A stretch of 64,000 nucleotides of DNA from Chlamydiales bacterium (GTDB lineage: Bacteria > Chlamydiota > Chlamydiia > Chlamydiales > VFKH01): NCBI GenBank assembly GCA_031292375.1, contig JARLHF010000001.1, positions 10,960 through 74,959 on the forward strand, read 5' to 3'. Made by a program: the position numbers and the translations under genes. Position 1 is the first letter of the stretch, and each line of letters opens with the position of its first letter. Under the pieces are notes generated by a model that saw nothing but the letters and a program-made list of their open reading frames with translations, did not search any database and was not told the origin of the DNA. This document shows, one piece after another, positions 519-39,100 of the stretch.

Positions 519-1862
519 ATGAATTTATTATTTAAGAAGCTAAAGCCCGCTCCTCATCTCCCGGAAATAGCAAACACGGCAATAGTTAAAGAAAAATATA
601 ACTATTGGCGTATCCGCATTTTATATTCAATGTTCATTGGGTACGCTTTTTATTATTTCTCTAGAAAAAGCTTTGTGTTTGCCATGCCCGGCATTATGCA
701 AGAATTGCAATTGGACAAAAGTCAACTTGGCATTGTAAGCAGCATTTTTGCGCTTACTTATGGAATAAGCAAATTCGCGAGCGGTGTGCTATCAGATCAA
801 TCTAACCCTCGCTATTTCATGGCTTTTGGCCTTATTTGCTCTGGGATTCTAACTATTTTTGTTGGATTTTCTTCCTCTCTTTATCTATTTGCAATTTTAT
901 GGGGACTTAATGGCTGGTTCCAGGGATTTGGTTCGCCTCCTTGTGTGAGGCTTCTTTCGCACTGGTATTCTCATTCTGAGCGTGGCTCGTGGTGGTCAAG
1001 TTGGACGGTATCACAAAATGTAGGCGCTTTTTTGATCCCTTGGATCGCAGGAATTTGCCTGCACTATTACAATTGGCAATTGGCTATGTTTGCTCCGGGG
1101 CTTTTATGTATCTTGGGCGGTTTTTTCCTCATTAACCGTTTGGCGGACACCCCCCAATCTCTTGGGCTTCCTCCAATTGAAAAATTTCGCAATGACTATA
1201 TAAGTCAGAAGCGTAATGACCATGAAGAAGAAGAGCTGTCAACTCGATCGCTCCTCTTAAGCGTCTTAAAGAATAAATGCATCTGGATACTTGCTGTTGC
1301 CTATTTCTTTATTTACACTGTACGTGTTGGAATAGAGAGCTGGACAGCGCTTTTTATGATTGAATCGGAAGGGTATACCCCTATTTATGCCTGTGGCTTA
1401 GTCTCTCTTTTTGAAGTGGGCGGTTTTTTTGGAGGACTTTCCGTAGGTTGGATATCAGACCGTCTCTTTAATGCAAAACGAGGCCCTGTCAATGCCTTAT
1501 TTGCAATCGTTTTGCTAGTTTCAATCCTTAGTTTTTGGTCTATGCCAAAAGGATGTGCCTGGCTCAATTCCTCTGTCATGTTCATTATCGGCTTTGCCAC
1601 TTTCGGACCTCAAATGTTGATCGGGATTGCGGTCACAGAATTGGCTCACAAAAAGGCATCCGCAACAGCCAATGGTTTTGCAGGATGGGTAGCCTATATT
1701 GGCGCTGCATCCGCGGGATTCCCCCTTGGCAAAATCATTGATTATTTAGGCTGGAAAGGTTTTTTTCTCTCAATGATCCTCTGTTCAGGTATCTCCATTA
1801 CCCTGCTTCTGTGGAGCATGACCTTTTCCCTCAAAAAAGAGATGAGTCAAATTTCTCCTTAG
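519..1862 (+). CDS. uhpC: MFS sugar-phosphate antiporter, UhpC/GlpT family
   Basis: Track ORF 477..1862. Collinear by eye with E. coli UhpC (YWRIRILYSMFIGYAFYYFSRKSF, SDQSNPRYFM, FQGFGSPPCVRLL, GPQMLIG). The Met at 519 aligns best with the UhpC N-terminus; 477 is the alternative start. Confidence 0.85.
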   Translation: MNLLFKKLKPAPHLPEIANTAIVKEKYNYWRIRILYSMFIGYAFYYFSRKSFVFAMPGIMQELQLDKSQLGIVSSIFALTYGISKFASGVLSDQSNPRYFMAFGLICSGILTIFVGFSSSLYLFAILWGLNGWFQGFGSPPCVRLLSHWYSHSERGSWWSSWTVSQNVGAFLIPWIAGICLHYYNWQLAMFAPGLLCILGGFFLINRLADTPQSLGLPPIEKFRNDYISQKRNDHEEEELSTRSLLLSVLKNKCIWILAVAYFFIYTVRVGIESWTALFMIESEGYTPIYACGLVSLFEVGGFFGGLSVGWISDRLFNAKRGPVNALFAIVLLVSILSFWSMPKGCAWLNSSVMFIIGFATFGPQMLIGIAVTELAHKKASATANGFAGWVAYIGAASAGFPLGKIIDYLGWKGFFLSMILCSGISITLLLWSMTFSLKKEMSQISP

Positions 1863-1981: not shown

Positions 1982-2320
1982 ATGATATACACAAACAAGT
2001 TCAAGAATTATTTGTGTATAATTATTTTGATAGATGAAATAGTCGAACATTTACCAAGAGGACGCGCTTATCTTGCGGATCAACTTCAAAGAGCAGGTAC
2101 TTCAGTGCTTCTCAATATTGCTGAAGGTGCTGGAGAATACTCTAGTAATGAGAAAGCTCGATTTTATCGAATGGCAAAACGATCTGCAACAGGATGTGCA
2201 GCGATTTTTGATGTATGTATCCGTTTAAAATTAGCTAACGAAGAACAATATAAACGAGGAAGAGAGCTATTGGTGCATATAGTAGCAATGCTTACAAAAA
2301 TGACTCAAGCATATAGTTAA
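1982..2320 (+). CDS. Four-helix-bundle protein (23S rRNA intervening-sequence protein / S23p family), apparently lacking its native N-terminus
   Basis: The C-terminal ~95 aa (IVEHLPRGRAYLADQLQRAGTSVLLNIAEGAGEYSSNEKARFYRMAKRSATGCAAIFDVC...) match the family pattern (L.RA..SI..NIAEG......E...F...A.GS..E). The first codons after the ATG at 1982 are encoded by the repeat itself. The upstream part of track ORF 1811.. looks non-coding. Confidence 0.6.
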   Translation: MIYTNKFKNYLCIIILIDEIVEHLPRGRAYLADQLQRAGTSVLLNIAEGAGEYSSNEKARFYRMAKRSATGCAAIFDVCIRLKLANEEQYKRGRELLVHIVAMLTKMTQAYS

Positions 2321-2375
2321 GGGGATTAATCGGGCAATGGCACGTATAAACAATTCTTGAACTTGTTTGTGTATA
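1986..2375. mobile_element. TIR-bounded ~390-bp unit carrying a four-helix-bundle ORF (IVS-like element of the TACACAAACAAGTTCAAGAATT repeat family)
   Basis: Left end is TATACACAAACAAGTTCAAGAATTATTTGTGTATA (1986-2020). Right end is its inverted copy CAATTCTTGAACTTGTTTGTGTATA (2351-2375). The same termini bound the MITE at 23010-23171. TA dinucleotides sit on both flanks. Confidence 0.5.
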
Positions 2376-2514
2376 AATAATAACAGGGTAGACAGGATCA
2401 GCCGAAACGGCTAGCAGGATAGCCTTTGATTAAAAAAGCAATGTTTCTTAAAAAATGCTTTCTTGCCCTATCCTATCAGCCGTTTCGGCTGATCCTGTCT
2501 ACCCTGTTATTATT
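2376..2514. repeat. 139-bp palindromic element: perfect 37-bp inverted arms with a 65-bp partly self-complementary spacer
   Basis: AATAATAACAGGGTAGACAGGATCAGCCGAAACGGCT (2376-2412) is the exact reverse complement of 2478-2514. AGGATAG/CTATCCT extends the stem. Each arm also holds a mini-hairpin (AGCCG-AAA-CGGCT). It sits between convergent genes. Confidence 0.8.
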
Positions 2515-5668: not shown

Positions 5669-6290
5669 AATTATGGTAGCAGGAATAGGCACTGATGTGG
5701 GAAAAACGGTGGTTAGCACCGTCCTTGCTATTCTTTTGAATGGTGATTATTGGAAACCAATTCAATGTGGCGATGAGGAAAATTCTGATACCATTATGGT
5801 AAAAAGATGGCTCGATACAACGACACATACTATCCACCCACCTGCTTACTCTTTAAAGGCACCCTTATCACCTCATCAAGCAGCTCGCTTAGAAAACACT
5901 CTAATTAGGCTAGATTCCATCATCCTGCCACAAACAACACGTCCCTTGATCATCGAAGGCGTCGGCGGTATTCTTGTTCCTCTAACTCCAAAAATTTCTA
6001 GTATAGACCTGTTCAAATCCTGGGATTGTCAATGGATTATTGTTTCAAAGCATTATCTTGGTAGTATTAATCATACCCTTCTTACCATTGAAGTCTTAAA
6101 AAAGCTTTGCCTTCCTATCCTTGGCATCATTTTTAATGGAGAACACAACCCCGATAGCGAGTCCGCCATCTTAGAAATTTCACAAGTTTCTGTTTTAGGA
6201 AAACTACTTCCTGAAGCCAATTTAAACCCTCAAACCATTCAAAGGTATGCAAAACAATGGCAACCACTCTTTTCCAAACTCCTTCTTTAA
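5661..6290 (+). CDS. bioD: Dethiobiotin synthetase
   Basis: GTDVGKT P-loop at the N-terminus, IIEGVGG motif, ~209 aa, sits between bioF and bioA. Confidence 0.9.
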   Translation: MHKIMVAGIGTDVGKTVVSTVLAILLNGDYWKPIQCGDEENSDTIMVKRWLDTTTHTIHPPAYSLKAPLSPHQAARLENTLIRLDSIILPQTTRPLIIEGVGGILVPLTPKISSIDLFKSWDCQWIIVSKHYLGSINHTLLTIEVLKKLCLPILGIIFNGEHNPDSESAILEISQVSVLGKLLPEANLNPQTIQRYAKQWQPLFSKLLL

Positions 6291-15259: not shown

Positions 15260-16933
15260 ATGAAAAAACCACTTCCTATTGGAATTAGCGACTTCAAAAA
15301 AATAATTGACGGAGGCTATGCTTATGTCGATAAAACTCTTTTGATCCAAGAGATCATAGAAAGAGGAACTCACGTTGCTCTCATTCCTCGTCCACGCCGC
15401 TTTGGCAAGACACTCAATCTTTCAATGTTACGTTATTTCTTTGAAAAGACAGCAGAAGACACGAGCTATCTATTTAAAAATTTAAATATTTGGAATAACG
15501 AAAAGTATAAAAGCCTGCAAGGACAATTCCCTGTTGTTTCGATCTCTCTCAAAGATGTAAAGCACATCTCTTGGGAAGAGAGCTTTAAAGTATTGCACAC
15601 ACTCATTGCCAAGGAAATGGAGAGGCATCATTATATCTTAGAAGTCCTAACAATAAGGGAGAAAGAACTTTATCATAAAATTCTCTCAGAAGAGAACAAC
15701 AAACCTTTAATTGAACAAAGCCTACTTCTAATCACAGAATGGCTGCATCGCTACCATGCCAAGCAAGTTATTCTCTTGATCGATGAGTATGATACTCCAG
15801 CCCATGCAGCTTACATTGGAAACTATTACAATACCTTTATCGACTTTATCCGCAACTGGCTTTCAGCAGGCTTAAAAGATAATGTGCATTTAGAGCGAGG
15901 TATTCTTACTGGTATTCTACGCATTGCAAAAGAGAGCATTTTTTCAGGATTAAATAACATTAGTACCTTTACAATATTAAATGAACCATTTAGTGATAAA
16001 TTCGGATTGTTAGAATCAGAGGTAAAAGAACTTTTAAAAAATCATGCCCTTTCTGATAAACTTCCTGAAATTAGTCAATGGTACAATGGTTACCGTATGG
16101 GATCTTGTACAGGAATTCATAATCCTTGGTCTGTTTTACAATGCATTGCTGAAAATGGTGCTTTATCTCCTTACTGGGTAAATACAAGTGATAATGCGCT
16201 TATGAAACATCTCATTGCTAAAGGAACTGATGATCTAAAAGCAGATATCGAGGAGCTTCTTAGAGGCGGTATTGTAGAAAAAACGATCGAAGATGGCGTT
16301 ATATTTCCAGGCCTCGAGCAAGACCCAAGTAGCATATGGTCTTTACTTCTATACAGCGGCTATTTAACAATTGACACAACCCCCTCTTATGGTGTTCCAT
16401 GCCAATTAAAGATTCCTAATATCGAAGTATCTGAACTCTATAAAACAATGATCTTAGATTGGTTTAAAACCAGCATTCATGAACATAAATATCGTATGCT
16501 CCTAAATAGCCTTGTCAGCGGTGATATTGACACTTTTTCTCAACTTTTTAAAGAATTTATGATCTCATCCGCAAGTGTTTTTGACGTATCCGCTGAAGAA
16601 TCTGAAAAAATTTATCATGCATTTATTTTGGGTATGTTAGTTGGGCTCAAAGATCAATATGAAGTTAAATCAAATCGTGAAAGTGGCCTTGGTAGGTATG
16701 ACGTCATGCTCATCCCTAAAAATACAAATGATTTAGGAATTATCATGGAATTCAAGAAGGTTGGTCGTTTTGAAGAAATTGACTTAGAAAAAGCTGTTCT
16801 TGCTGCCTTAAAACAAATAGAAGACAAACAGTACGCTCAAGAACTTCTTGATCGCGGTGTAAGCCGTATTTTGTATCTTGGGTTTGCCTTTGAAGGCAAA
16901 CGCGTTCTCATCCGTTCAAAAATTAAAACTTAA
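15260..16933 (+). CDS. Predicted AAA-ATPase-like / PD-(D/E)XK nuclease family protein (AAA-ATPase_like + DUF1703 architecture)
   Basis: N-terminus LPIGISDFKKIIDGGYAYVDKTLLIQEII...RPRRFGKTLNLSML is the signature of this family. The C-terminus GRYDVMLIP...IMEFK fits a PD-(D/E)XK core. Confidence 0.7.
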   Translation: MKKPLPIGISDFKKIIDGGYAYVDKTLLIQEIIERGTHVALIPRPRRFGKTLNLSMLRYFFEKTAEDTSYLFKNLNIWNNEKYKSLQGQFPVVSISLKDVKHISWEESFKVLHTLIAKEMERHHYILEVLTIREKELYHKILSEENNKPLIEQSLLLITEWLHRYHAKQVILLIDEYDTPAHAAYIGNYYNTFIDFIRNWLSAGLKDNVHLERGILTGILRIAKESIFSGLNNISTFTILNEPFSDKFGLLESEVKELLKNHALSDKLPEISQWYNGYRMGSCTGIHNPWSVLQCIAENGALSPYWVNTSDNALMKHLIAKGTDDLKADIEELLRGGIVEKTIEDGVIFPGLEQDPSSIWSLLLYSGYLTIDTTPSYGVPCQLKIPNIEVSELYKTMILDWFKTSIHEHKYRMLLNSLVSGDIDTFSQLFKEFMISSASVFDVSAEESEKIYHAFILGMLVGLKDQYEVKSNRESGLGRYDVMLIPKNTNDLGIIMEFKKVGRFEEIDLEKAVLAALKQIEDKQYAQELLDRGVSRILYLGFAFEGKRVLIRSKIKT

Positions 16934-17594
16934 TCAAATGATGAGCTTCTAAAAAAGTGCTCTTGTTATAAGCATCATTCCAAAAATGCCATTCTAATAA
17001 AGAGCTATACATAAAGGCATTTTTCATGCTCTCTAATGTATTTACAGAGCACTTACTTGCTGTTTTATCTAGTATGGATATGGCCAAATCAGTTCCTCTT
17101 GAAAATTCCTGACTAGAATAAGTCTCTATCCAAAGCATGTAAGGGTTTTCTTCTTTAGCATATGCAGCTATATGCCTTCCTACTTCCCTATAAATCCAAA
17201 AACAGGGTAGCACTGCTGCAATAGCCTCTTCCAATGAAGCAGTTGACGCCGTTGAAATAAGGTAGTGAGTATAAGACATACAAAACACAGAAGGCTCAAT
17301 CGTATCGCAAGTATAATTTGGAGCCAAAAATTTGGCATGTAGTTCACGCTCTGCAACGAGAGCTCCCAGTGCAAAATTCAAAAACTGATGAATCATTTCT
17401 GAAGAGCTTGCCCTACCTGCAATGAGCGCAAGCGCCCTAGAAAAGCTCTTTAAATAGTAAGCATCTTGCTCCATATAAAAAAGGAATCTCGATCTCTCTA
17501 ATGTTCCCTCAGCAAGTTCCCTATTAAAGGGATGATTTATAATTCTTTGATAAATGGGAAAAGTTTGCTGCCAAAGATCACTAGAAAACGTCAT
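16923..17594 (-). CDS. tenA: Thiaminase II / aminopyrimidine aminohydrolase (TenA family)
   Basis: LWQQTFPIYQRIINHPFNRELAEGTLERSRFLFYMEQDAYYL is a typical TenA N-terminus. The Met at 17594 sits 1 nt beyond the thiD stop; the track start at 17627 lies inside thiD. Confidence 0.85.
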   Translation of the reverse strand: MTFSSDLWQQTFPIYQRIINHPFNRELAEGTLERSRFLFYMEQDAYYLKSFSRALALIAGRASSSEMIHQFLNFALGALVAERELHAKFLAPNYTCDTIEPSVFCMSYTHYLISTASTASLEEAIAAVLPCFWIYREVGRHIAAYAKEENPYMLWIETYSSQEFSRGTDLAISILDKTASKCSVNTLESMKNAFMYSSLLEWHFWNDAYNKSTFLEAHHLIKF

Positions 17595-17595
17595 A

Positions 17596-18396
17596 TTAAA
17601 AGCTCCAAAAATGATGAACAGGACCATTTCCCTGACCTATTCTCAAGGATGCACCTGCACTAATTGCTTGTGTAAGATATTCTTTAGCCCTCTGAACGGA
17701 CTCATGAATAGAAAAACCTTTTGCTAGAAATGCAGCTATCGCAGCTGAAAGCGTACACCCTGTCCCATGTGTATTTTGTGTCGAGATTCTTTTACTTGAA
17801 AACCAATGAATCTGCTTATTTGAATTTTTCAAACATAAACAATCTGAGCAATCAGCGTCTAAATGCCCTCCCTTTACAAGCACTGCCAAAGGACCCATCT
17901 CAATCAAATCCAAAGCTGCTTTTTCCATTTGGGCTTTATTTTGAATCTTTCTTCCTAAAAGCCTTGAAGCTTCCATCAAATTGGGGGTCAACACCGTTGT
18001 AATCGGGAAAAGGCGCTCTTTCATAGTAGCAATGGCATCTGGTTGTAAAAGCACATCACCACTTTTTGCAACCATAACTGGATCAAGAACAATGCAATTC
18101 ACACCATACTGACACAAAATATTCACAACACTATCAACAATGTCCTTGCGATACAACATTCCTATTTTTACAGTATCTATACAAATATCATCTAAAATGG
18201 CTTTAATTTGTTCTTCTATACACTGAAGCGATACATCATAAACTGATCTAACTCCAATAGTATTTTGAACTGGAATAGCTGTCAAAACAGTTGTTCCATA
18301 ACATCCCAAAGCTGAAAATGTTTTAAGATCTGCTTGAATACCAGCACCCGCACTTCCATCAAAACCTGCAATTGTAAGTACTTTATAAAGCCCCAT
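17596..18396 (-). CDS. thiD: Hydroxymethylpyrimidine / phosphomethylpyrimidine kinase
   Basis: VLTIAGFDGSAGAGIQADLKTFSALG..., GTGCTLSAAIAA. Ribokinase-fold ThiD pattern. Confidence 0.9.
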   Translation of the reverse strand: MGLYKVLTIAGFDGSAGAGIQADLKTFSALGCYGTTVLTAIPVQNTIGVRSVYDVSLQCIEEQIKAILDDICIDTVKIGMLYRKDIVDSVVNILCQYGVNCIVLDPVMVAKSGDVLLQPDAIATMKERLFPITTVLTPNLMEASRLLGRKIQNKAQMEKAALDLIEMGPLAVLVKGGHLDADCSDCLCLKNSNKQIHWFSSKRISTQNTHGTGCTLSAAIAAFLAKGFSIHESVQRAKEYLTQAISAGASLRIGQGNGPVHHFWSF

Positions 18397-19027
18397 ACGC
18401 CTCCATTTTTTTCCCCATCATAGTAGCTGCATTTACAGGGCAATTTGCATCAAAAATTGCAGAAACTACAGCTACTCCTGCAACACCACATTCCAAAACT
18501 TCATCTACATTTGTCTTGTTTATACCACCAATTGCAATCATTGGATGGAAAGAAATAGAACATGCATATCTCAAATCGTCTAGTCTCCAATAAGTACTAC
18601 AATCACTTTTTGTCTTTGTAAAAAACACAGGACTTGCAGCAAGATAATTCACATCCTCATTTTGAGCTTCTATGACATGAGTTATATTCTCTACAGATAA
18701 TCCAATAATTGCTCGTTTACCAAGAATTTTTCTTGCTTCAGACACCTTTACATCAGACTGACCTAAATGAACTCCATCTGCATCTACCACATGAGCCACA
18801 TCTACATTGTCATTAATGATTAATGGAACACTCATTGGCTTTAAAATAAGTTGTAGTTTTTTTGCAAGAGCCACAAATTCATGAGCTGAAATCCCCTTTT
18901 CTCTCAATTGAACGATTTTTACACCACCCTTAATAGCTTTATGGATAATTCTAAAAAAATCTTCCAACTCAAGACCTACTCGATTGGTAACTAAATAAAG
19001 TGATAAATCCAATGGATATCTATTCAT
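18383..19027 (-). CDS. thiE: Thiamine-phosphate synthase
   Basis: LYLVTN, VQLREK, DGVHLGQ, IAIGGI motifs. Overlaps thiD and thiM. Confidence 0.9.
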   Translation of the reverse strand: MNRYPLDLSLYLVTNRVGLELEDFFRIIHKAIKGGVKIVQLREKGISAHEFVALAKKLQLILKPMSVPLIINDNVDVAHVVDADGVHLGQSDVKVSEARKILGKRAIIGLSVENITHVIEAQNEDVNYLAASPVFFTKTKSDCSTYWRLDDLRYACSISFHPMIAIGGINKTNVDEVLECGVAGVAVVSAIFDANCPVNAATMMGKKMEAYGAL

Positions 19028-19835
19028 AATACTCCACGCATATGTATTCTTCTATTTCAGCAAGTGATATTGAATAAAGTGTGTCCATGAATAATGGAAT
19101 AAATGAACCTGGTCCATTTGATCTTCTAGCTGCTATTTCCCCAGAAATACTTATAAGAATTGCAGCATGAACTAACCCCAAAAAGGCATTTGGATTAATT
19201 GCTAAAAAAGCCCCTGCAATTGCGGTAGCACCGCAACCCATTCCTGTAACTTTTTCCATTAAAGGATGGCCATTATGAACAAATATGCATGACTCACCGT
19301 CCGTTATTATGTCACTTTTACCACTCATCCAAACGATGCATCTTTTTCTAGATGCCAATAATTTTGCTTGCTGTACATGTTCCATGGGATTTAGAGAGGT
19401 ATCAACGCCCTTTGTCATTCCTTGAACATTACAAAGAGAGACAATTTCTGATGCATTACCTCTAATTGCAGTGATGATACCGTGAGCAATAATGGTATTA
19501 GCTGTTTTAGTTCGGTACTGAGTAGCACCCGCACCCACAGGATCAAATACCACTGGAATACCCTTTCGATTCGCTGTTTTTATCGCTAAAAGCATACTAG
19601 ACACCCATGGAGAGCTTAGCGTGCCTATGTTTAAAACAAGGCTACTCGCAATCATAGTCATATCCTCTACTTCTTCTAGAGCATGAGCCATAACGGGGGA
19701 GGCACCAAGAGCAAGCAGGCTATTTGCTGTTTGCTCCATGACAACATAATTGGTTATATTATGAACGAGAGGAGAATTACTTTTGATTTTTTGGATGTCC
19801 GACCAGATACTGTGTGGATCTACTTTCATCTTCAC
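19020..19835 (-). CDS. thiM: Hydroxyethylthiazole kinase
   Basis: PLVHNITNYVVMEQTANSLLALGASPVMA, DPVGAGAT and GMGC motifs. GTG at 19835 or ATG at 19829. Confidence 0.9.
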   Translation of the reverse strand: MKMKVDPHSIWSDIQKIKSNSPLVHNITNYVVMEQTANSLLALGASPVMAHALEEVEDMTMIASSLVLNIGTLSSPWVSSMLLAIKTANRKGIPVVFDPVGAGATQYRTKTANTIIAHGIITAIRGNASEIVSLCNVQGMTKGVDTSLNPMEHVQQAKLLASRKRCIVWMSGKSDIITDGESCIFVHNGHPLMEKVTGMGCGATAIAGAFLAINPNAFLGLVHAAILISISGEIAARRSNGPGSFIPLFMDTLYSISLAEIEEYICVEYYE

Positions 19836-19836
19836 G

Positions 19837-19920
19837 CTTCCTCCGCTGGTATTATCCAGATCAGGTTTTAGGGTATTTCTCAGCTAAGGTAATTACAAAC
19901 CTTAAGCACCCCTGGTGATT
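19837..19920 (-). promoter_or_regulatory. TPP (THI-box) riboswitch in the thiM leader
   Basis: The minus strand reads ...CAGGGGTGCTTAAGG..CCTTAGCTGAGAAATACCCTAAAACCTGATCTGGATAATACCAGCGGAGGAAGC. This matches the conserved GGGGUGC / CUGAGA / ACCUGAUCUGGAUAAUACCAGCG core. The 3' GGAGGA doubles as the SD. Confidence 0.9.
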
Positions 19921-19987
19921 AAAAACTTATTTCTCTAACAAAGCCAAACTTATACCCTTAATCACAAAATTATTTCAAGCATTAGTA

Positions 19988-21282: not shown

Positions 21283-21519
21283 CACATTATTTACGATGAA
21301 CTTTGTCAAGGAAAGGTATTTTCTGAATCTAAAGATGAGCTAATTCGTATCATAGAAGCTCTTAAAGACGATGGAGCAGAAGCTGTTTTACTCGGGTGTA
21401 CAGAGCTTGGAATGCTCATTTCAGCAGAAGATGTAACCATTCCAGTGTATGATACAACCATTTTACATGCCAAAGAGGCGGCACGAATGTCTCTATTCTA
21501 CACACAGACCAATTCTTAA
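21283..21519 (+). pseudogene. Aspartate/glutamate racemase family gene, 3' remnant (~78 codons with no usable start)
   Basis: The frame reads HIIYDELCQGKVFSESKDELIRIIEALKDDGAEAVLLGCTELGMLISAEDVTIPVYDTTILHAKEAARMSL... This matches the C-terminal third of Asp/Glu racemases, including the second catalytic Cys context (LGCTE). The N-terminal ~150 aa are missing. Confidence 0.7.
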
Positions 21520-21534
21520 ATTGGTCTGTGTGTA
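21499..21534. terminator. 16-bp-stem hairpin between convergent genes; a probable variant of the dispersed repeat family
   Basis: TACACACAGACCAATT-CTTA-AATTGGTCTGTGTGTA read directly. The ends TACACA.../...TGTGTATA and internal CAATTCTT resemble the TACACAAAC...CAATTCTTGAAC repeat. Confidence 0.45.
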
Positions 21535-22602: not shown

Positions 22603-22821
22603 AACATTCTCCTTACTTTGCTATAAAAAACGAGGGATGATATCGATTAACACTTTAATTTTACAAGCCTTACGTTTTGAAAATCATGCGTATCATGCCA
22701 ACATGAATATTTATATTGCCAAAATGCTACCTTAACAATATATTAACACATCATCGGTTACTTTTAAATTTTCAAGATGAAATTTTGGGTACTTTTTAAA
22801 GAAGATAATTTGGAGGCTTTT

Positions 22822-23374
22822 ATGCGTATTGAAGATTGTTTTGTTCCTAACAATTTAGGATCACTTTCTGTTTTTTATGAGAACGAGGAGTTTTTCATAG
22901 AAACAACAGATGGGAAGCGCGCAATTCAAAAATGCGATCTCTCAAAAGAACTAAAAAATATTTCAGAGCCAGCATTATCAGCGCTGCTGTCCAAAGGCCA
23001 ACTATGTGTTATACACAAACAAGTTCAAGAATTGGTTTTTGACAACGCGAAAGCTTTCGCGGTTCAACGATCATAATCAACTCCATATTGCTAATATTGA
23101 GTTGATTATGATCGTTGAGCCTCGGGGCTTTGGCGCAGTCAAAAAACAATTCTTGAACTTGTTTGTGTATAAACCAATAGGAAACGATCATGGCATTGAA
23201 TTTAGAGCAAGAGTCTTAGGTGCTGGTCCTATTCTTGGCGCGCTTACGTTTGGTGTTATGGTTGTTGTTGGTGGCGCACTGACTCTTATTCCAGGTGGGC
23301 AGGCCGTGGGAGCAGCAGTTATAGCCGTTGCTCCCGAAACAGCTGCTGCTGCAACGGCCTTACCTACCCCATAA
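22822..23374 (+). pseudogene. Small membrane protein gene (C-terminal bilobed Gly/Ala-rich hydrophobic domain) interrupted by a MITE
   Basis: The 5' part (track 22777..23076, likely Met at 22822 with a GGAGG RBS) and the 3' part (frame of track 23006..23374) become one continuous frame (...SKGQLCV|KPIGNDHG...) when 160 bp is removed. The 160 bp is the element plus one TA. Confidence 0.6.
23010..23171. mobile_element. 158-bp MITE flanked by a TA target-site duplication; ~32-bp TIRs TACACAAACAAGTTCAAGAATTG(G/T)TTTTTGAC
   Basis: TIRs are read directly (23012-23043 versus the reverse complement of 23138-23169, 1 mismatch). The whole element is a long imperfect palindrome with a central 19-bp stem (CAACGATCATAATCAACTC...GAGTTGATTATGATCGTTG). 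TA is present at 23010-11 and 23170-71. Confidence 0.75.
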
Positions 23375-23428: not shown

Positions 23429-23755
23429 ATGTCAATAACTGTACATAATATTCCAGAAAGCCGTCAAGCCCATCAAAGGGAAAATACGGATGTACCTGCA
23501 GGAGTTCGAAGGAACGGAAGATTTTCTTTTGGCGCTATTACTAGAGCAGCGCTCAAGGTTGCCACAGTGGCAGCTCCCCTTCTATTACTAGCAAGTCAAA
23601 TCTCCGGAGCAGATGCAGGACCTGCTGCATATGCCATCTGTGTGGCAGCTTGCGGAACAATTGTAGGAGTTACCAGTGCTGGCACATTACTTCCAGCAGG
23701 AATAGGCCCTTGCATCAGTGCTTGTTGGACTGCATTCCTTGCACCTACTCTATAA
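23429..23755 (+). CDS. Small membrane protein with a hydrophilic N-terminus and a multi-lobed Ala/Gly/Cys-rich hydrophobic domain (Inc-like candidate)
   Basis: AAGGAG RBS. The first ~35 aa are polar, followed by ALKVATVAAPLLLLASQI-SGADAGP-AAYAICVAACGTIVGVTSAGTLL-PAGIGP-CISACWTAFLAP. Resembles the C-terminus of the upstream interrupted gene. Confidence 0.6.
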   Translation: MSITVHNIPESRQAHQRENTDVPAGVRRNGRFSFGAITRAALKVATVAAPLLLLASQISGADAGPAAYAICVAACGTIVGVTSAGTLLPAGIGPCISACWTAFLAPTL

Positions 23756-28504: not shown

Positions 28505-29247
28505 TGACTATGTCCATGGCCGTTAAAAAGAGCATTTTTTCTAACTTAAGCGAGAAGGAAGTACACGTTTGGATGATAGATATTGAGGCGCACCTTTCTT
28601 CTTTTAATAGCTACGTTCATATTTTATCTGCTGAAGAAACCCTACGGGCAAATGACTATATCTTCTTAGAACATTCTACTCGTTTTGTAATTAGAAGAGC
28701 TATCCTTCGTATTATTTTAAGTTTTTATACGTCCATTTCTCCTAAAAATATTATTATTAGAACAGATCAAAATGGTAAGCCATACTTGGGTTGTTATGAA
28801 TCAAAAATTTTCTTCAGCCTGTCATATTCTCAAAACTTAGTTTATTATGCAATAAGCTCTAAACCTTGCATAGGCATTGATATTGAATATATTTCAGAGA
28901 AGCCCCCAGAAGAAGATTTAGCAAAGCTTGTTCTGCATTCTGAAGAGTACAAACTTTTTGAGAAGCTTTTTTCTTATCAGAAGAGAGATTTATTTTATCA
29001 ATATTGGAGCCAAAAAGAAGCTTTAGTAAAAGCCATTGGCATAGGTCTGAGATTTCCTCTATCAGATATTCATATTGAATTCTCTAATCATCAAGTTTCA
29101 CGCCTTATTAGTTTTGCAACGTCCCCTGTAGATATGTGGTCTTTATCTTCTCTTGAAATCCCTTCAAATTACGTAGGATACATCGCCTTAAAGGGTGAGC
29201 TCGGTCCTATTAAATATCAACAACTTACAAATAGTGAATATGTGTGA
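28504..29247 (+). CDS. 4'-phosphopantetheinyl transferase, Sfp type
   Basis: IGIDIEYI (Mg-binding D-x-E) and YWSQKEALVKAIGIG (W..KE...K) motifs. ~245 aa. Its stop overlaps the NRPS start (ATGTGTGA). Confidence 0.85.
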   Translation: MTMSMAVKKSIFSNLSEKEVHVWMIDIEAHLSSFNSYVHILSAEETLRANDYIFLEHSTRFVIRRAILRIILSFYTSISPKNIIIRTDQNGKPYLGCYESKIFFSLSYSQNLVYYAISSKPCIGIDIEYISEKPPEEDLAKLVLHSEEYKLFEKLFSYQKRDLFYQYWSQKEALVKAIGIGLRFPLSDIHIEFSNHQVSRLISFATSPVDMWSLSSLEIPSNYVGYIALKGELGPIKYQQLTNSEYV

Positions 29248-30100
29248 AGCGCAAACTTTTTTTATTTTAGGCGAAACTTCCTTAACAGCTCAATGTATAG
29301 AGCACTTATTAGATAGAAAGCATTGTATTTCAGGTCTTATTTCTGATGACCCCTGGCTCCAAGCATGGGCACAAGAGCGCAAAATCCCCCTATTTGATAG
29401 TTTTACCTCTTTAACAGAATTTGATTACCTTCTTAGTATCGTAAATCCAAAGCTTATCCCCAAAAAGATTATTCAGTCAGCTAAAAGATTAGCAATTAAT
29501 TATCACGACTCACCACTTCCTGCTTATGCAGGAGTTCATGCAACATCATGGGCTATTTTAAATAATGAAAAGAAACACGGGATTACTTGGCATATCATTA
29601 CAGAACAGATAGATGCAGGTGGTATTGTAAAGCAAGTAATTTTCCCAATCGATAATGGAGAAACTGCTCTCAGTTTGAATATAAAATGCTACCAGCATGC
29701 TTTGCAATCATTTAAAGAGTTGGTAGTTGAGCTAGAAGAAGGTAGCTGCGTATTCAAAAAACAAGATTTAAGCGGTCGTTCTTATTTTGGTTCTCATAAA
29801 AAACCAAAGCATGCAGGAATCATTTCATGGGATCAAAATGCAAGGGAAATAGAGACTCTTTTTAAGGCTCTTGATTTTGGAAACTACCCCAATAAACTTT
29901 GTAGCCCAAAATTATTGATAAAAGAGTATATTCTTTTTCCAAGCAAGATGGAAATTCTTGATCATTCTTCAGAGCACCCGCCTGGAACAATAATAAAAAT
30001 TACAGGGACTCAGATAGAAGTCGCGACTAACACTTCTGATATTCTCCTAACAGTTCAGGAAAACGACTCTCAAAAAATATTGACTATGCCTGGGGAGTGT
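29240..30100 (+). other. NRPS domain: N-formyltransferase (F) domain (approximate bounds)
   Basis: Fmt-like INYHDSPLPAYAGVHATSWAILNNEKKHGITWHIITEQIDAGGIV (HxSLLPxxRG-type and DxG motifs), as in formylating starter modules. Confidence 0.75.
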
Positions 30101-33100
30101 TTAGCTTCTCTGGATAATTCTCAAAAGTTAGAAGAGTTCTGTTATGAGCTCTCTTTCTATGAGAATTTTTGGGTTAAAGAATTACAAAAAACTACTTACT
30201 TAAACTTAGGACAGTATTCATCTTCTCTAGACATACCCTTTGATACGACTTTAAATTTGCCAACCTCGCTATCAAAAGAAAGCTTATTGGCAGCTATATT
30301 GATTTATTTCTATAGAATATCTCAGCAAAGTAATTTTACGGTAAACTACCAAAATATACCTGTTGGAAATGATTTAAACAGGTTTAGTGACTTGTTTATT
30401 ACTGATCTTCCTTTAAATGTTTCGTTTGTTGCTGAAGACACCTTTCTTAGTGCTCAGGAAAAAATATGCAATGCCTTGCAAATATTAAAAAACAAGAAAG
30501 CTTACTTAAAGGACCTCCCCCTAAGATATCCTGAATTATCCAATTCTTCTCAACAAACTTCATTTATTGGAATTCAATACGTAGATGATATAGCTCAAGG
30601 TGTCGTTTCTAATAAATATAGCCTTCAGATTCTCATTTCGAACCCAGGAAATCAATGTAGAATTATTTCCTCTCAAAACTTAGCTTTTCTATTACGAAGT
30701 ACTGAGCATCTTTTATCGCTTTTAGAGGCAATGAATACCAATACTCCGATTATATCTTTGCCTTTGCTTTCTCAAGTAGAGAAAAAGCAAATCTTAACAT
30801 GGAGTGAAAACAATAGTTCTGATTGTTTTTCTATGTGTACTCATAAATTAATTGAGCGATATGCATTAAAGAATCCTAAGGCCCTTGCAATAGCCTGTGA
30901 TGAATCCTTTCTCTCTTATGAAGAATTAAATAATCGAGCCGAAATAATATCAAAACATTTATGTCTAATGGGAGTTGGGCCAGAAGTTAATGTAGTCCTA
31001 TGCCTAGAAAAATCTTTAGCGCTTGTTATTGCTATGTTAGCAGTGATGAAATCTGGAGGAGCTTTTGTGCCATTAGAGCCTAGCCAACCTGAAGAGCGCC
31101 TTCATTACATTTTAAATGATGCTAAACCTATATTAGTTTTAACACAAAAATCCTTAGAAGCCAAGTTGATGAGAGTCAAGACCCCTCTTTGCTTCATCGA
31201 AGAGGCACTTGCTCCAAAGCATGAAAAACAAGATAAACCCTTTAAGCAACTATACTTATCTAACCGTGCTTATATTATTTATACTTCAGGGTCTACAGGC
31301 TTTCCTAAAGGGGTAGAAGTTGAACACAAACAATTGGCCTTTGTACTGAAGGCAAAAGCATTACAATATCCCCTCAAACATTTAAAATTTTTGTGGGTAG
31401 GCTCAATTAGTTTTGATATCTCTATTGCTAACATTTTGTTGCCCCTTATTTCGGGTGGTACGCTTTATTTTTCTGCTAAAGTCTCTAATACAGATTCAGA
31501 TAGTATTGTACAGCTTTTGAATCGACACAAGATTAATCATTTTGGTCCTCCTGTGTCTCTTTATTCTCTGATCTTAGAACAAAATAAAAAGCTTAGTTGT
31601 CCCACCCTAGAATACGTATGCGTTGGAGGTGAAGCTCTTACAGATTCTATTGTCTTACTACATCAAAAGTATTTTCCACAGGCTGTTTTATTTAATGAAT
31701 ATGGCCCTACAGAATGTACAATTGTATCTTCCTATTCAAAAGTATATGATCCAAATATATTCTCTAGTGCACCTATTTCTATAGGAAAGCCTATTGAAAG
31801 GGCTAAAATGTATGTTCTTGATCATCATCTTCAAATACTTCCTATCGGAGTTAGGGGGGAAATTTATATAGGTGGAGAAGGTGTTGCAAGAGGATATGTG
31901 AACAATCCAGAGCTAACTCATGAAAAATTTATTAACTCTTCTCTTTTTGGTCGTTTATATAAAACAGCAGATCTGGGTTGTTGGCTGCCCCATGGGGAGA
32001 TTCAGTTTGTTGGAAGATCTGATCAACAAATAAAGTTTAGAGGTTATCGGATTGAACTAGAAGAGATTGAAAGAACTTTATGCGGCTATAAAGGCATTCA
32101 ACAGGCAGTAGTTTCTTTAACAGACAATGGTAAGAGGCTTATTGCCTATTTAGTCTTAGAAGCTGATCATGATTCTTTAGTTGAAGATTCTCTTAGAAGT
32201 CACTTAAATACCTACCTTCCTGTATATATGATCCCTTCTGCTTTTTTTATTTTGGATAAATTTCCTTTAACAATAAATGGGAAAATAGATCGCAATGCTC
32301 TTCCTGAACCCATTGTAAGTAGGTCAGGCAACCTTAATTATAAAGCACCTAGAACTGCAGATGAACAATCAATTGCGGAAATATGGTCTTGGCACTTAAA
32401 AGTTGAGCGCATAGGATTGCTAGATAGCTTTTTCGAATTGGGAGGCCACTCGTTACTGGCTGTCCAGGTAATTGTTTCATTGCAGAATACTTTTAAAATA
32501 GAAATCCCTCTAAAAAGCCTTTATGAGCATCCGATTTTAGAAAAATTTGTACAATTCATAACTGATTCAAAAGCTTCGACTACTGTTGCGTCTGTTGAGG
32601 CGTATCCAAAAGTAATCTCCAATCCTTCTGATCGATTTTTAGAATTTCCTTTGACAGATATTCAACAAGCATACTGGATTGGAAGAAATGAAGTTTTTTC
32701 TTTAAGCCAAATTGCGGTTCACGGATATAGTGAATATGAGTGTGATCATTTGGATTTAAATCTACTAGAAAATAGCTGGAATCAATTAATTCGTCGACAT
32801 GAGGCTTTAAGGCTTATTTTTCCTGGGGATGGAATGCAAAAAATTCTTCCGGAAGTTTCTCACTATACTATCCAATGTTTTGACTTTTCTAAAGAAACAG
32901 AAAAGGCTACAGAAACCCATCTTGACAAATTAAGAGAGCGTTTATCCCATCAGGTACTACCAACAGAAATCTGGCCTCTTTTTGAGGTATGTGTTACGAA
33001 AAAGAAAAACAGCTACCGTTTACACTTTAGCATAGATGGTCTTATTGTCGATGGTTGGAGTTTCAATATCTTGCTTTCCGAGTGGGCAAAACTATACTTT

Positions 33101-36100
33101 GAGCCAGAGATGGCTTTAGCGCCTTTAGGAGTTTCTTTCAGAGACTATGTTTTAACAGAAATTCAATTAAAACAACGTAGCCTATATAATAGAGATAAGA
33201 ACTACTGGCTATCTCGACTTTCCGATTTTCCAATTGGGCCTTCTCTTCCTCTTTTTAAACATCCAAAAGAAATAGAAAAACCTGTTTTTGATCGATGTAC
33301 AAAGAAGCTAGAAAAGCATCTCTGGGGACCCCTTAAGGAGCAGATCAAAGCGAGGGGTTTGACTCCAACATCTTTTTTGTTAGCGCTTTTTGGTGAAATT
33401 TTACAATTTTGGAGTAATAGTTCACGTTTTACCATCACCCTTACACTATTTAATCGTTTGCCATTTCATCCCCAAATCAATGAAATCATGGGAGATTTTA
33501 CCTCTCTAACGTTATGTGAAATTGATAATAGAGAGAAAACCACTTTTGTAGAAAGAACTCAAAAGCTACAAGCACGCTTATTTTCAGATATTGACCATCG
33601 CTTGTTTAGTGGAATAGAAGTACTACGTGAATTAAGTCGACAAACCCAAAGCTCTTGGGATGCTTCACTAATACCTGTTGTTTTCACCTCTTTATTGGCG
33701 GAAGAATCTCAAGAAAATAAAACAAATTTTACTACAAATCAGGTGTACAGTATTACACAAACACCTCAAGTGTGGTTAGATTACAAAGCATATAGCCAAT
33801 CAGGAGAACTTGTCGTAGAATGGGATTATGTTAAAGGATTATTTCCAGACAACTTAATTGAAGATATGCACCAAGCCTACTTCAGATTATTGGATAGATT
33901 AGTACATTCAAAAGAGGCTTGGGATCAAACTTGTTTTGATCTGCTTCCCATAAAACAAGAAGCTTGTCGTAATGATACTAATGCAACACACTGGGAAGTC
34001 AAACAGCTCCTTTTACAAGAATTATTCCATTGTAAGGCAAAAGAAATGCCTAATCAGACTGCAGTCATTTATGAAGGAAACTTTCTTTCTTATAAAGAGT
34101 TGCAAATAACATCTAATCAACTAGGCAGCTATTTACGTCATAAAGGAGCCACGCCTAATCGTTTGGTTGCTATCGTCATGGATAAATGTCTAGAGCAGGT
34201 TATAGCGTGCCTTGGGATCCTTAATGCAGGCGCGGCATATTTACCGATTAGTGCCGATCTTCCAGAAGAGAGAATCGTTGAATTACTTAAATTGGGAGAA
34301 GTAGATTTTATTCTGACACAGAATAAGTATCTTAAGAAGCTATCTACACAAAAACTGGAGAACAAGCTTTTAATTACATTAGATGGACTTCAAGCGGATG
34401 TATGGAAGCAGGAAAGCTGTGCGTATTTAAAACCTGTTCAAGTTCTTGATGACCTTGCTTATGTCATTTTCACCTCTGGTTCTACTGGAATTCCAAAAGG
34501 AGTGATGATTAATCATAGAGGAGCTGTAAATACAATTCTCGATATGAACGAGCGATTCAAAGTAAATCATCATGATCGAGTTTTAGCAATTTCTAATTTA
34601 AACTTTGACTTATCCGTCTATGATATCTTTGGCTTATTAGCTTGTGGAGGCACTATTGTCATACCTCGTTCTGAAGATATTAAAGAACCTGTTTGTTGGT
34701 TAGAATTGCTGCAGCTATATAAAGTGACTATCTGGAATAGCGTTCCTATGTTTATGAGCATGCTTGTAGAATATCTAAAAGATAGAGAAGAAGGCATGTC
34801 AACTAATACCGCTTTACGACTGGTCTTACTCAGTGGTGATTGGATACCTCTGGACCTACCACATTCCATTAAAGAGTTTTTTCACCAGCCTGACGTTATC
34901 AGCTTAGGTGGCGCTACAGAGGCCTCTATTTGGTCTATTATTTATCCTATCAACAACGTGCTTCCCGAATGGAAAAGTATTCCTTATGGCCTACCTTTAC
35001 GCAATCAGGAAATGCACGTATTAAATGAGTATTTGCAATCTTGTCCAGACGGAGTGCAAGGAGATATTTATATTGGTGGTATTGGCCTTGCAAAAGGTTA
35101 TTGGATGGATAAGAAAAGGAGTGATGCGCAATTTATCTTTCATGCTAGCTGGAAAAAGCAACTCTATAAAACAGGAGATTTGGGAAGATATTATCCTAAC
35201 GGTGTAATTGAATTTCTTGGTCGTAGCGATAGTCAAGTAAAAGTCAATGGGTATAGAATTGAACTTGGCGAGATACAGAAAACATTAGAATCTCACAAAG
35301 ACATTTCCCATGCTCTTATTACAACACTTGGAGAGAAAGATAAAGAAAAGCAATTGATTGCTTATTTGGCCCTAAGTAACAATCAGGCGCCTGAAATTCA
35401 AAGTGCTGAAATTCAAGATCCTGTAGACAGGATAAATTTTAAGCTGAGTCTTGCAAATACAAGAAGAGTTTTAAAAGAACATAAAAACATTCAGTTTGAC
35501 ATTCCAAAGAACGATTACTCAAAGCTTTTCCGTCGTAAAAGTTATCGTTGCTATGACGGGAACAAGATAAACTCTTCAATTTTGATTAATATATTATGTA
35601 AAAGTTTGAAATCTTCTGGAATTATGGGAAAAGCTAGAGAAGATGCAATTCCTCTCTCAAAATTTGATAGTTTTTTAATGCCCTTAACCGCTTATAGGTT
35701 TCCAGAGTCCCCTATTCCAAAATACACATACCCTTCTGCAGGTGCTCTTTATCCCGTCCAAGTTTATATAAAAGTAAATAGCATTTCAGGAATAGATGCA
35801 GGAGTGTATTTTTTCAATCAAACTGAAAGAAGATTATGTCTGGTTGATGATGAATTATTACCCCTTGATGATCCTAATGATCATTTTACTTTATATTTAG
35901 TAGGAAGAACATCACTTATTAAACCTATGTATGGAGACCTTTGGAGAGAATTTTGTGAACTTGAAATAGGCTATATTGTCCACCTATTAAACAAGTCAGC
36001 AGTTTCTCAGGATTTTCAGCTGATGATGAAACATATGGATGGCAATGAGCCAATCACTATTTTGGGAGCAAGCTATGTTAATGTAAAACAAGAATGCCCC

Positions 36101-39100
36101 TTAGCTCCTGAGGTTGAAGTTTGTGTGTATATTAAGCCAGAGGCCTTAATTGATCTCACAGAGGGATGGTATCAATTTGAGACAAAGGCAAAAAAATTAA
36201 TTCTGATAAAAGATACAATCTCCTTCAACCCGCAATTGGCAGTTACTGACTATTACTCTATCCTAATGGAAGCTTCATTCACCCTATTTTTTTTAAGTGA
36301 CGCTAAGAATTACGCCAGAAGAGTGCAAATTGGAATGTTTGCGCAGCATATTATGGAGAAAGGAATAGATGAGCTAATTGGTTTTTGCCCAATTGGAACA
36401 CTAGACAACAACTGTACTGCTCAATATAGGGAAATTTTAGGTTCTCAACATGTGCTCCATGTCCTAACAGGCGGACCTGTTAGTCAAGCACAATTGCAAG
36501 AAAGAGGTAGCTCCATTCCCAAACCCCCAGAAGAGCGACTTTCTCAAGACTTACAACTTTTTTTAAAGGACAAGCTTCCTGACTATTTTATCCCTTCTTT
36601 TTTCTTAGTTTTAGAAAAATTTCCTCTCTCAGTAAATGGTAAAATTGATTATAAGTCTTTACCCATCCCACAGAACGGACAAAGCATTTCCAAACGTTAT
36701 ATACCTCCTCGCACGGACGTAGAAGAAAAATTGGCTACTATTTGGTCTGAAGTATTGAAAATAGGAAATATAGGGATCCAGGACCATTTTTTCCTCCTTG
36801 GAGGCCATTCCCTCTCAGGCGTGCAAGTACTTTCTCGTATTAGAAAAGTTTTTAGTCTAGATTTTCCAATTAAAAAAATCTTCGAGTATCCAATTCTTGA
36901 AGCTCTAGCAACTCAGATAGCTAAAGAAAGTGAAAAAACCTCTCAATTTGTCTATCCCCCAATAACAAAAGAACCCCATAGTAAGTATTATCCTCTTTCA
37001 TTTACACAGCAGCGTTTATGGTTTTTAGATCAACTGTTAGATAACAAATTGGTTTATATGATTCCCTTGGCATTTAGGCTAAAAGGGTTTCTTGTCCTTG
37101 ATAAATTAAAAATAGGATTAACAAATCTGATCAAGCATCATGAGATTCTTAGGACTGTATTTATCTCTGAAATGGGGATAGCAAAACAGACTGTCTTAGA
37201 AACAAGCTTTTTCGATCTTCCTGTTTATGATCTTTTAAAAGAAAACTCTCTAGTGACAGATCATATGGAAGAAGAAGCCATAACACCTTTTGATTTATCA
37301 AAAGGTCCTTTGATAAGAGGAAGATTACTAAAAATTGAAGAAAACGAGCATATTTTTTTGCTTACTATTCATCATATCATCACAGATGAGTGGTCTATTC
37401 GAGTTTTATTACGAGAAATAAGTTATCTCTATAACTCTTTAAGTGAACTTCCAAAGACACAAACGGCTTCTGATACTATTGAGTATGTAGATTTTACTTG
37501 TTGGCAACGCAATTGGCTAAAGGATAGTATTTTAGAAAAACAATTAAAATTCTGGAAAAATGAGCTAGAAAATTGTACCGATTTATTGCAACTTCCCACA
37601 GATAAACAGCGCCCACAGAGGCCCACCCATCAAGGGGCTATTTTTTCTTATATTATTCCTTCCAAGCTTACTGATCTTTTGAAAAAGACGGCGGAATCAC
37701 AAAAAGTGACTCTATTTATGGTTTTATTGGGAGCCTTTCAAACATTTTTACATCGTTACTCTGGTCAAATAGACATTATAACTGGTTTTCCTGTAGCCAA
37801 TAGACATTATCCTGGAGTAGAAAACCTCTTGGGATATTTTGCCAATACTGTTGTGCTTAGAACAACTTTCCACTCAGAAAGTAACTTCAAAGAAATTTTA
37901 AGCCAAATCAGAGATAAAACAACAAAAATTTATGAGAACCAAGATGTTCCTTTTGAATATTTAGTAGATTATTTGAAGATTCCAAGAGATTTAAGTCGCC
38001 ATCCTCTTTTTCAAGTTATGTTTGTCTATAGAAATAGCAACTTGACTGAACTCATATTGAATGGATTAGAAGTTGAAGAGCTTCCTGTAAACCACCGTGC
38101 TGCAAAATTCGATCTTGTGTTAACAGCTGAAGAAACCCTGAATGAACTAAAGCTAGAGTTTGAATATGCAGTAGATTTATTTGATAAAAGTACTATTCAA
38201 AGAATGTCCCAAAATTTTATTAAGCTGCTAGAAAGTATTGTGGCAAATTTAGATCAACAAGTAAGTCTTCTAGATATTGTTGCAGAACAAGAGTATGACA
38301 AAATTATCCATGAGTGGAATAAAACAGAATGTTTGTTTACTGCTCCATTTTGTTTACATCAGCTCTTTGAAAAAAGAGCTGGTCAAAGTCCAGAACATCC
38401 AGCTCTCATCTTTGAAGAAAAAATAATCTCATACGCAGAATTAAATAAACAATCTAATCGTTTAGCTCGTTATCTTAGAAAATTAAATATATCTTCAGAT
38501 GTTATTGTGGGCATTGCTTTAGAACGCTCTATTGAATTGGTTATCGCTATTTATTCTACTATGAAGGCAGGAGGCGCCTATCTTCCTTTAGAGTTGACCT
38601 ATCCAAAGGATCGCCTTAACTATATGCTAGAGGATGCAAGTGTAGAGGTAGTGATTACACTTACAACAGATCGTGATAAATTTTTAAATTTTAAAGGAAC
38701 GATTTTATGTTTAGATCAACTAGAAATAGATGAAAGCGAAGAAAACTTAAGCATTGATTACCCTCTTTCTTCTCTTGCGTATGTTATTTATACATCAGGT
38801 TCTACTGGGCAGCCAAAAGGGGTCTGTATTGAGCATAAAGGACTTGTTAACCGTATATTATGGATGCAAAATGAGTATCAGTTACTGTCTTACGATAGAG
38901 TACTCCAGAAGACGCCCTTTAGCTTTGATGTTTCTGTTTGGGAGTTTTTTTGGCCTCTCTCATTTGGAGCGTCATTAGTTATAGCCAAGCCAAAAGCCCA
39001 CCGCGATACCGAAGAGCTCATCTACACCATTCAACGTTACTTTATTACATGCATGCATTTTGTTCCGTCTATGCTTGGTTCATTTTTAGAGCTTCAGGGA

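Follow-up and report, generated by a model that had tools for sequence, protein, structure and literature searches.

A 158-bp palindromic MITE of the IS630/Tc1-mariner type splits a small gene in a Chlamydiales genome

RUP in Streptococcus pneumoniae, Correia/NEMIS in Neisseria and Nezha in cyanobacteria are bacterial MITEs of the IS630 family. They are non-coding elements of 100–160 bp with terminal inverted repeats (TIRs) of ~25–30 bp, which insert at TA and duplicate it; they have a strong potential to form hairpins in transcripts, and a transposase of the IS630/Tc1-mariner type is presumed to mobilise them in trans. Another group, the Rickettsia palindromic elements (RPEs), consists of in-frame insertions that are translated within the host protein and that, to our knowledge, have neither a TA duplication nor a known transposase partner. 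ISY100 and other Tc1/mariner/IS630 elements insert at TA only, and the TA is duplicated (PMC2170065). The N-terminal HTH domain of the ISY100 transposase binds terminal repeats of ~24 bp, and ISY100 mini-elements retaining 30 bp per end transpose like the full element (PMC2170065).

Here we characterise a palindrome in the window, by which we mean the whole 64,000-nt stretch of DNA analysed, taken from a metagenome-assembled genome (MAG) of the Chlamydiales. It is a known kind of element, an IS630/Tc1-mariner-type MITE, newly found here in Chlamydiota; our literature search returned no account of this MITE type in Chlamydiae. The chlamydial MITE matches RUP, Correia and Nezha in size, TIRs, TA duplication, hairpin and lack of coding capacity, whereas its sequence is unrelated to theirs and its host belongs to the Chlamydiota. 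It also differs from them in being a full palindrome with both ends of the right-end (IRR) type, and it was seen once. The element and the gene around it have the following parts.

22822..23010, + strand: 5′ half of the split gene, codons 1–63 up to the insertion point; annotated as the 84-aa P4L16_00185 (P0001, 100% identity)
23010..23011, no strand: left TA target copy; keeping one TA restores the frame and the gap-free alignment
23012..23169, no strand: MITE of 158 bp, non-autonomous, a near-perfect palindrome encoding no transposase (from sequence, repeats, folding and the end match to the contig L007 element described below)
23012..23043, + strand: left TIR, 32 nt, whose outer ~27 nt (TACACAAACAAGTTCAAGAATTGG) are common to the IS family
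23138..23169, − strand: right TIR, 32 nt, with one mismatch against the left TIR
23170..23171, no strand: right TA target copy (from sequence and the deletion test)
23172..23374, + strand: 3′ half of the split gene, a Gly/Ala-rich hydrophobic C-terminus ending in PTP; annotated as P4L16_00190 (P0123, 69 aa)

Read directly, the element starts with TACACAAAC and finishes with GTTTGTGTA, with TA on each side. The left 32 nt (TACACAAACAAGTTCAAGAATTGGTTTTTGAC) and the reverse-complemented right 32 nt (TACACAAACAAGTTCAAGAATTGTTTTTTGAC) differ at a single position; as written on the forward strand, the right end is GTCAAAAAACAATTCTTGAACTTGTTTGTGTA, followed by TA. The repeat finder returned nested inverted repeats spanning the whole element (46-nt outer arms and 32-nt inner arms, each pair at 91%). 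As a DNA single strand, the 158 bp fold into one long hairpin (−68.1 kcal/mol, z = −17.7), and the corresponding RNA hairpin reaches −102.6 kcal/mol (z = −19.1); none of 200 shuffles folded as well. Both direct inspection and the repeat search thus bear out the sequence-only reading, which had described a TA-flanked palindrome of 158 bp with 32-bp TIRs carrying one mismatch. Six copies of the 21-nt terminal motif are present in the window, whereas shuffles predict 0.00. The ORFs within the MITE are read-through frames only, and consensus scans detected no outward promoter or terminator within the element.

Removal of 23012..23171, the element plus one TA (160 bp), yields ...tgt gtt aaa cca ata gga... 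and an open frame reading ...LSKGQLCV/KPIGNDHG...ALPTP before the stop codon (the slash marks the junction). The two ORFs are therefore fused in frame, as had been claimed from the letters alone, and a 130-aa protein results. Alternative boundaries (CAC...GTG with a TATA or an inner TA duplication) were ruled out, since the corresponding 156- and 158-bp deletions create a stop codon; the reading frame thus fixes the boundaries as a TA duplication plus 158 bp. The upstream ORF now continues into the MITE and stops at 23076. The element resembles RPEs, which are palindromes of 100–150 bp inside protein genes of obligate intracellular bacteria, but an RPE-type identity was rejected because 160 bp is not a multiple of three and because of that stop.

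Two proteins, P4L16_00185 and P4L16_00190, are annotated at this place in the MAG, and an in-frame fusion has a prior chance of one in three. These points would fit two separate genes fused in frame by coincidence, with the palindrome as an intergenic repeat or regulatory hairpin, and the relatives of the 130-aa protein speak against that reading. An exhaustive HMMER search with the 130-aa query returned ~150 proteins at E<=1e-3, 18 of them at E<=1e-10, and the full-length relatives (129–150 aa) align over residues 3–130 in a single stretch that covers both halves. The best relative, P0122 (135 aa, 48% identity, E=9e-33), does so as well. The junction is gap-free in the multiple alignment and matches residue for residue (GQLCV/KPIGND in the window, GQLCL/KKIGND in P0122), and the C-terminal PTP is kept. 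In addition, the 3′ half lacks a native start codon; the only one available is a GTG inside the right TIR (23165), at which the annotation begins. We consider the separate-gene reading to have a very low probability and take the two ORFs to have been a single gene. The relatives span both halves, so that neither of the outcomes against which the sequence-only reading had set its claim, ORFs that are never contiguous in relatives or a segment that is ancestral coding sequence, was encountered. Judged from these alignments, the 160 bp are evidently an insertion into a formerly continuous gene.

The relatives emerged only from the exhaustive HMMER search, as a word-indexed protein search with the fused protein found its own 84-aa fragment only. 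Pfam contains no family for the reconstructed 130-aa protein. Its C-terminal ~50 residues are strongly hydrophobic, with a Kyte-Doolittle peak of 2.2 at residues 85–103, which would fit a membrane anchor. A promoter-like site (10/12 match) lies upstream of the 5′ half at 22716..22744. The best relative bears the locus tag P4L16_06020 and is therefore an intact paralogue within the same MAG. The neighbouring 108-aa ORF at 23429..23755 (+) has a C-terminus that is likewise Gly/Ala/Cys-rich and hydrophobic, and no Pfam family; as a candidate tandem paralogue it was rejected (BLASTP E=0.11).

In agreement with what had been noted before, the 64 kb of the window contain no transposase of the matching type (tblastn with the transposase, E>5). 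We scanned public collections with the TIR 20-mer CACAAACARGTTCAAGAATT and obtained 6 genome loci and 13 metagenome loci. One of the latter, contig L007, which comes from a different metagenome than the MITE host, carries the IS630-family transposase with matching TIRs that the sequence-only reading had proposed to look for. Its 1.6-kb element (L007 59..1658) is bounded by TA followed by TACACAACGTGATTCAAGAATTGG on one side and by CCAATTCTTGAACTTGTTTGTGTA followed by TA on the other, and has two ORFs. ORF1 encodes a 355-aa transposase of the IS630 family, which scores 211.7 bits with the NCBIfam equivalog NF033545 (cutoff 100) and has a C-terminal DDE_3 domain (2e-31) and an N-terminal HTH_33 domain in Pfam. 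Plasmids of Vibrio, Salmonella and Klebsiella carry annotated IS630 transposases to which it is ~44% identical across 96–98% of its length. ORF2 encodes a 117-aa four-helix-bundle protein (PF05635, 1e-23; TIGR02436) and overlaps the transposase gene by 14 nt.

The L007 element has the features that define the IS630 family and that it shares with ISY100: a transposase that combines HTH and DDE_3 domains, TIRs that are imperfect, and a TA on either side. It differs in its length of ~1.6 kb, in the second, translationally overlapping gene (PF05635/TIGR02436) and in long subterminal (GCCCGN)n inverted repeats; in classical IS630 members, unlike L007, the transposase is the sole gene. Our literature search found no account of an IS630 element carrying a four-helix-bundle gene. 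The left flank of L007 (1..58) repeats part of the element's own transposase gene (626..683) exactly but in inverted orientation, which reflects either insertion into another copy of the IS or a chimeric assembly, and the right flank is an IS4-family transposase gene. Because the left flank is an inverted self-copy, matching flanks cannot verify the target duplication of L007.

The ends of the MITE match the right terminus of L007 at 29 of 29 and 28 of 29 nt, TA included. The full IS has a left end that differs from its right end, and both ends of the MITE are of the right-end type, as are both ends of a 386-bp unit elsewhere in the window (see below). Comparison of the MITE interior with the subterminal (GCCCGN)n region of the IS gave no convincing homology beyond ~29 nt, so that the ~27–29-bp ends alone tie the MITE to the IS. 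With its termini matching those of a TA-flanked element that encodes an IS630-family transposase, the MITE falls into the IS630/Tc1-mariner type to which its TA duplication had originally led it to be assigned.

The whole element is a hairpin, like REP-like or IS200/IS605-associated elements, and one motif-bearing Waddliaceae contig (L004) has an ORF resembling the IS200/IS605 TnpA. We therefore weighed mobilisation by another system (REP/RAYT, IS200/IS605-type PATEs or a host function), under which the IS630 likeness would be convergent or secondary. The motif does not flank the L004 TnpA ORF, however, which lies at a distance of ~1.3 kb; IS200/IS605 elements duplicate nothing, whereas TA duplication is the signature of IS630/Tc1-mariner elements; and chance could not plausibly account for an exact match of 27–29 nt to the outermost end of an IS630 element with TA flanks. 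Such a mobiliser appears highly improbable. We conclude with high confidence that 23012..23169 is a MITE of an IS630/Tc1-mariner-family IS living in environmental Chlamydiae.

As a mechanism, a full-length copy present elsewhere in the genome, or formerly there, would supply the transposase in trans. The transposase would bind the ~24–30-bp terminal repeats and excise the element, whose 3′ ends would be joined to a TA at positions staggered by 2 bp; gap repair would then duplicate the TA. In ISY100, ~24–30 bp per end suffice in cis, which would explain the mobility of a 158-bp derivative.

The target TA lies within the codon pair GTT/AAA (Val62-Lys63) of the 130-aa gene, and the addition of 160 bp shifts the frame. 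The 5′ half now comprises 62 native and 21 element-encoded residues and lacks the membrane segment, while the 3′ half carries the membrane segment and has lost the native start. As predicted from this arrangement, the gene is most likely inactivated and null. In the transcript, the long hairpin (an 80-bp stem) would be a likely target of RNase III. The intact paralogue P4L16_06020 may make the loss of the gene tolerable.

The empty site is inferred from paralogues (<=48% identity). Public data yielded no orthologous empty site, the relatives found being these paralogues; the sequence expected for an empty site, with one TA and the element absent, is GTTAAACC. Both TA copies have survived unchanged, the two TIRs match almost perfectly and each gene half is still undamaged and open, all of which suggests that the insertion is evolutionarily young and makes "recent" a plausible description. 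The window holds four terminus-bearing loci in its 64 kb and the 158-bp form once. Protein searches, including one with the MITE-encoded peptides, and scans of contig collections that do not include this MAG gave no further 158-bp copy, and the 19 kb examined from the Logan assembly of a close relative (L032) have none.

The source is a MAG, and repeats of this IS family do confuse assemblies: many of the contigs are 1.5–2 kb long, the left flank of L007 looks chimeric, and loci L023–25 share a left flank while their right flanks differ. The insertion could in principle be an assembly or binning artefact, with a repeat collapsed or mis-joined, or a minority variant in the population. We regard this as very unlikely, since an artefact would not be expected to leave a perfect TA duplication that, once removed, gives back every codon of a conserved protein, and since the contig is collinear on both sides. 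The insertion may be a variant that is not fixed in the population, and minority-variant status would leave the identity of the element unchanged. We therefore retain the reading as a MITE insertion.

The other sites in the window with MITE-type termini are as follows.

1988..2373, + strand: 386-bp unit, a second non-autonomous member of the family, TA-flanked (from termini and PF05635, E=9e-19)
60757..60818, + strand: two abutting 31-bp mini-units (TACACAAACAGGTTCAAGAATTATTTGTGTA), TA-flanked, after which a further TACACAAA follows
21510..21532, − strand: degenerate solo terminus with 5 mismatches in 23, then TA; weak evidence

The 386-bp unit consists, in order, of a 31-bp mini-unit, a TA, a 5′-truncated four-helix-bundle gene (PF05635) and a right terminus. 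The gene lacks approximately its first 20 codons; its product shares 76% amino-acid identity with that of the L007 gene and carries the MAG annotation "four helix bundle protein" (102 aa). The unit is intergenic, with an MFS transporter gene on one side and a DUF6314 gene on the other. Directly adjoining it is a second, unrelated palindrome of ~140 bp (2376..2514; arms of 50 nt at 92%) with the terminal motif AACAGGGTAGACAGGATCAGCC, a DNA hairpin of −52.6 kcal/mol (z = −16.8) and a single copy in the window.

In the mini-unit TACACAAACARGTTCAAGAATTATTTGTGTA, 23 nt from one terminus are fused to 8 nt from the opposite one. Three occur in the window (1988..2018 and the two at 60757..60818), against 0.00 expected, and no TA separates the units of the tandem pair. 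A Waddliaceae MAG has a 37-bp analogue (L004 1835..1871). The mini-units may have arisen by abortive gap repair or by extreme internal deletion.

Rfam searches of the window and three chlamydial loci at gathering thresholds identified no RNA family at any element site. Their sole match was away from these sites, a TPP riboswitch (RF00059, 64.4 bits) at 19820..19923 (−) of the window, upstream of the minus-strand cluster 16923..19835. At 29195..44446 (+) the window has one ORF of 5083 aa.

The four-helix-bundle remnant of the window has 2756 homologues at E<=1e-10; the best 120 of these are 73–85% identical, mostly 117 aa long and mostly on contigs of 0.5–2.8 kb. Such short contigs of about IS length are the pattern expected of an assembly-breaking repeat. 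In three of six gene contexts (P0003, P0024 and P0019; L022–L030), the four-helix-bundle gene is immediately preceded by a DDE_3 transposase gene, which either overlaps it by 14 nt or ends 4 nt before it. The remaining contexts have the four-helix-bundle gene alone, bordered by (GCCCGN)n inverted repeats, at these positions.

L020 2868..3423: solo four-helix-bundle gene
L031 2853..3384 and 5981..6053: solo four-helix-bundle gene, and a small palindrome made of nothing but the two GC-rich repeats
L021 2904..3490: solo four-helix-bundle gene

L020 and L031 represent ordinary chromosomal neighbourhoods (rpiA/NIF3 interval; mur/ftsW cluster), and L021 is at a contig end. The solo genes with (GCCCGN)n repeats may form a second tier of non-autonomous derivatives.

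The ~1.6-kb IS has long TIRs, composed of the AT-rich outer ~27 nt and the subterminal (GCCCGN)n repeats. The outer termini vary by sub-lineage (...AATTGTGTA, ...AATTGGGTA), with TA always next. All seven right flanks, which differ from one another (three from L023–25 and four from L026–30), begin with TA, and TA is found on both sides of the L023–25 copies, of the 386-bp unit and of a relative on the plasmid pPNK of Candidatus Protochlamydia naegleriophila. The latter is an internally deleted relative of the IS (L033 2179..2975; record 57614..58410), with TA followed by TACTGAAAGTGATTCAAAAATTGG at one end and CCAATTTTTGAATTTCCTTGGGTA followed by TA at the other, and the N-terminus of its transposase is 63% identical. 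It sits between two RHS-repeat genes and is annotated as a "winged helix-turn-helix domain-containing protein". The IS family is thus resident in Chlamydiae, in MAGs of the Chlamydiales and Waddliaceae and on pPNK.

A Bacteroidetes MAG contains a 154-bp palindromic MITE with the same ~27-nt ends (L001 1496..1649, identical to L010 2464..2617); its interior is unrelated to that of the chlamydial MITE and its flanks are TA and TT. These ends suggest that the same transposase lineage may operate across phyla. By our estimate, ~2 chance matches are expected in the genome scan, and we take L001/L010 to be real. The non-chlamydial loci L002 and L005 and most metagenome matches (L008, L009, L011–L015 and L017–L019) were set aside as likely chance, because each has a single copy of the motif and no partner end within 5 mismatches.

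PF05635 genes are also enclosed in some of the intervening sequences (IVSs) of 23S rRNA. The MITE itself was rejected as an rRNA IVS, given its protein-coding location and the absence of an rRNA match in Rfam. The 386-bp unit resembles the ORF-bearing IVSs of Coxiella and Leptospira (PMC4990558) in size and architecture, being ~400 bp long, enclosing a PF05635 gene and being bounded by stem-forming inverted repeats of ~28 bp; it differs in lying in intergenic chromosomal DNA rather than in an rRNA helix. Transposase-less units with a four-helix-bundle gene between long inverted repeats are found at 1988..2373 of the window and at L020 and L031. The origin of ORF-bearing rRNA IVSs is described as unresolved, and older proposals saw the IVS as a transposon remnant and its ORF as "a component required for mobility" (PMC4990558). 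Proteins of the PF05635 family are similar to Avd, an accessory protein of DGRs (PMC10053308), and are present in rRNA insertions of CPR bacteria (PMC11270868). By analogy, we tentatively propose, as a possibility to which we give rather low odds, that IVSs could be non-autonomous derivatives of the IS630 lineage with the four-helix-bundle gene (IS630-4HB) that landed in rRNA helices, where RNase III would cut the TIR stem; the four-helix-bundle protein would then be a nucleic-acid-binding accessory factor. The IS630-4HB lineage is accordingly put forward as a candidate mobile ancestor of IVSs, a lead and not a result.

For the Chlamydiae, this case documents a family of IS630-type MITEs together with matching full-length elements in environmental members of the group, and the presence of these termini on a Bacteroidetes element is a hint of inter-phylum exchange. 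For annotation, and for the study of gene evolution, its value is that two public "hypothetical proteins", P4L16_00185 and P4L16_00190, are the halves of one gene that a transposon has most likely killed. The two-gene IS630 lineage with its conserved PF05635 gene is apparently very abundant in metagenomes, and it offers a testable origin for IVSs and a possible function for a large uncharacterised protein family. If true, this origin would offer a concrete solution to a problem that has stood for 30 years, the source of IVSs.
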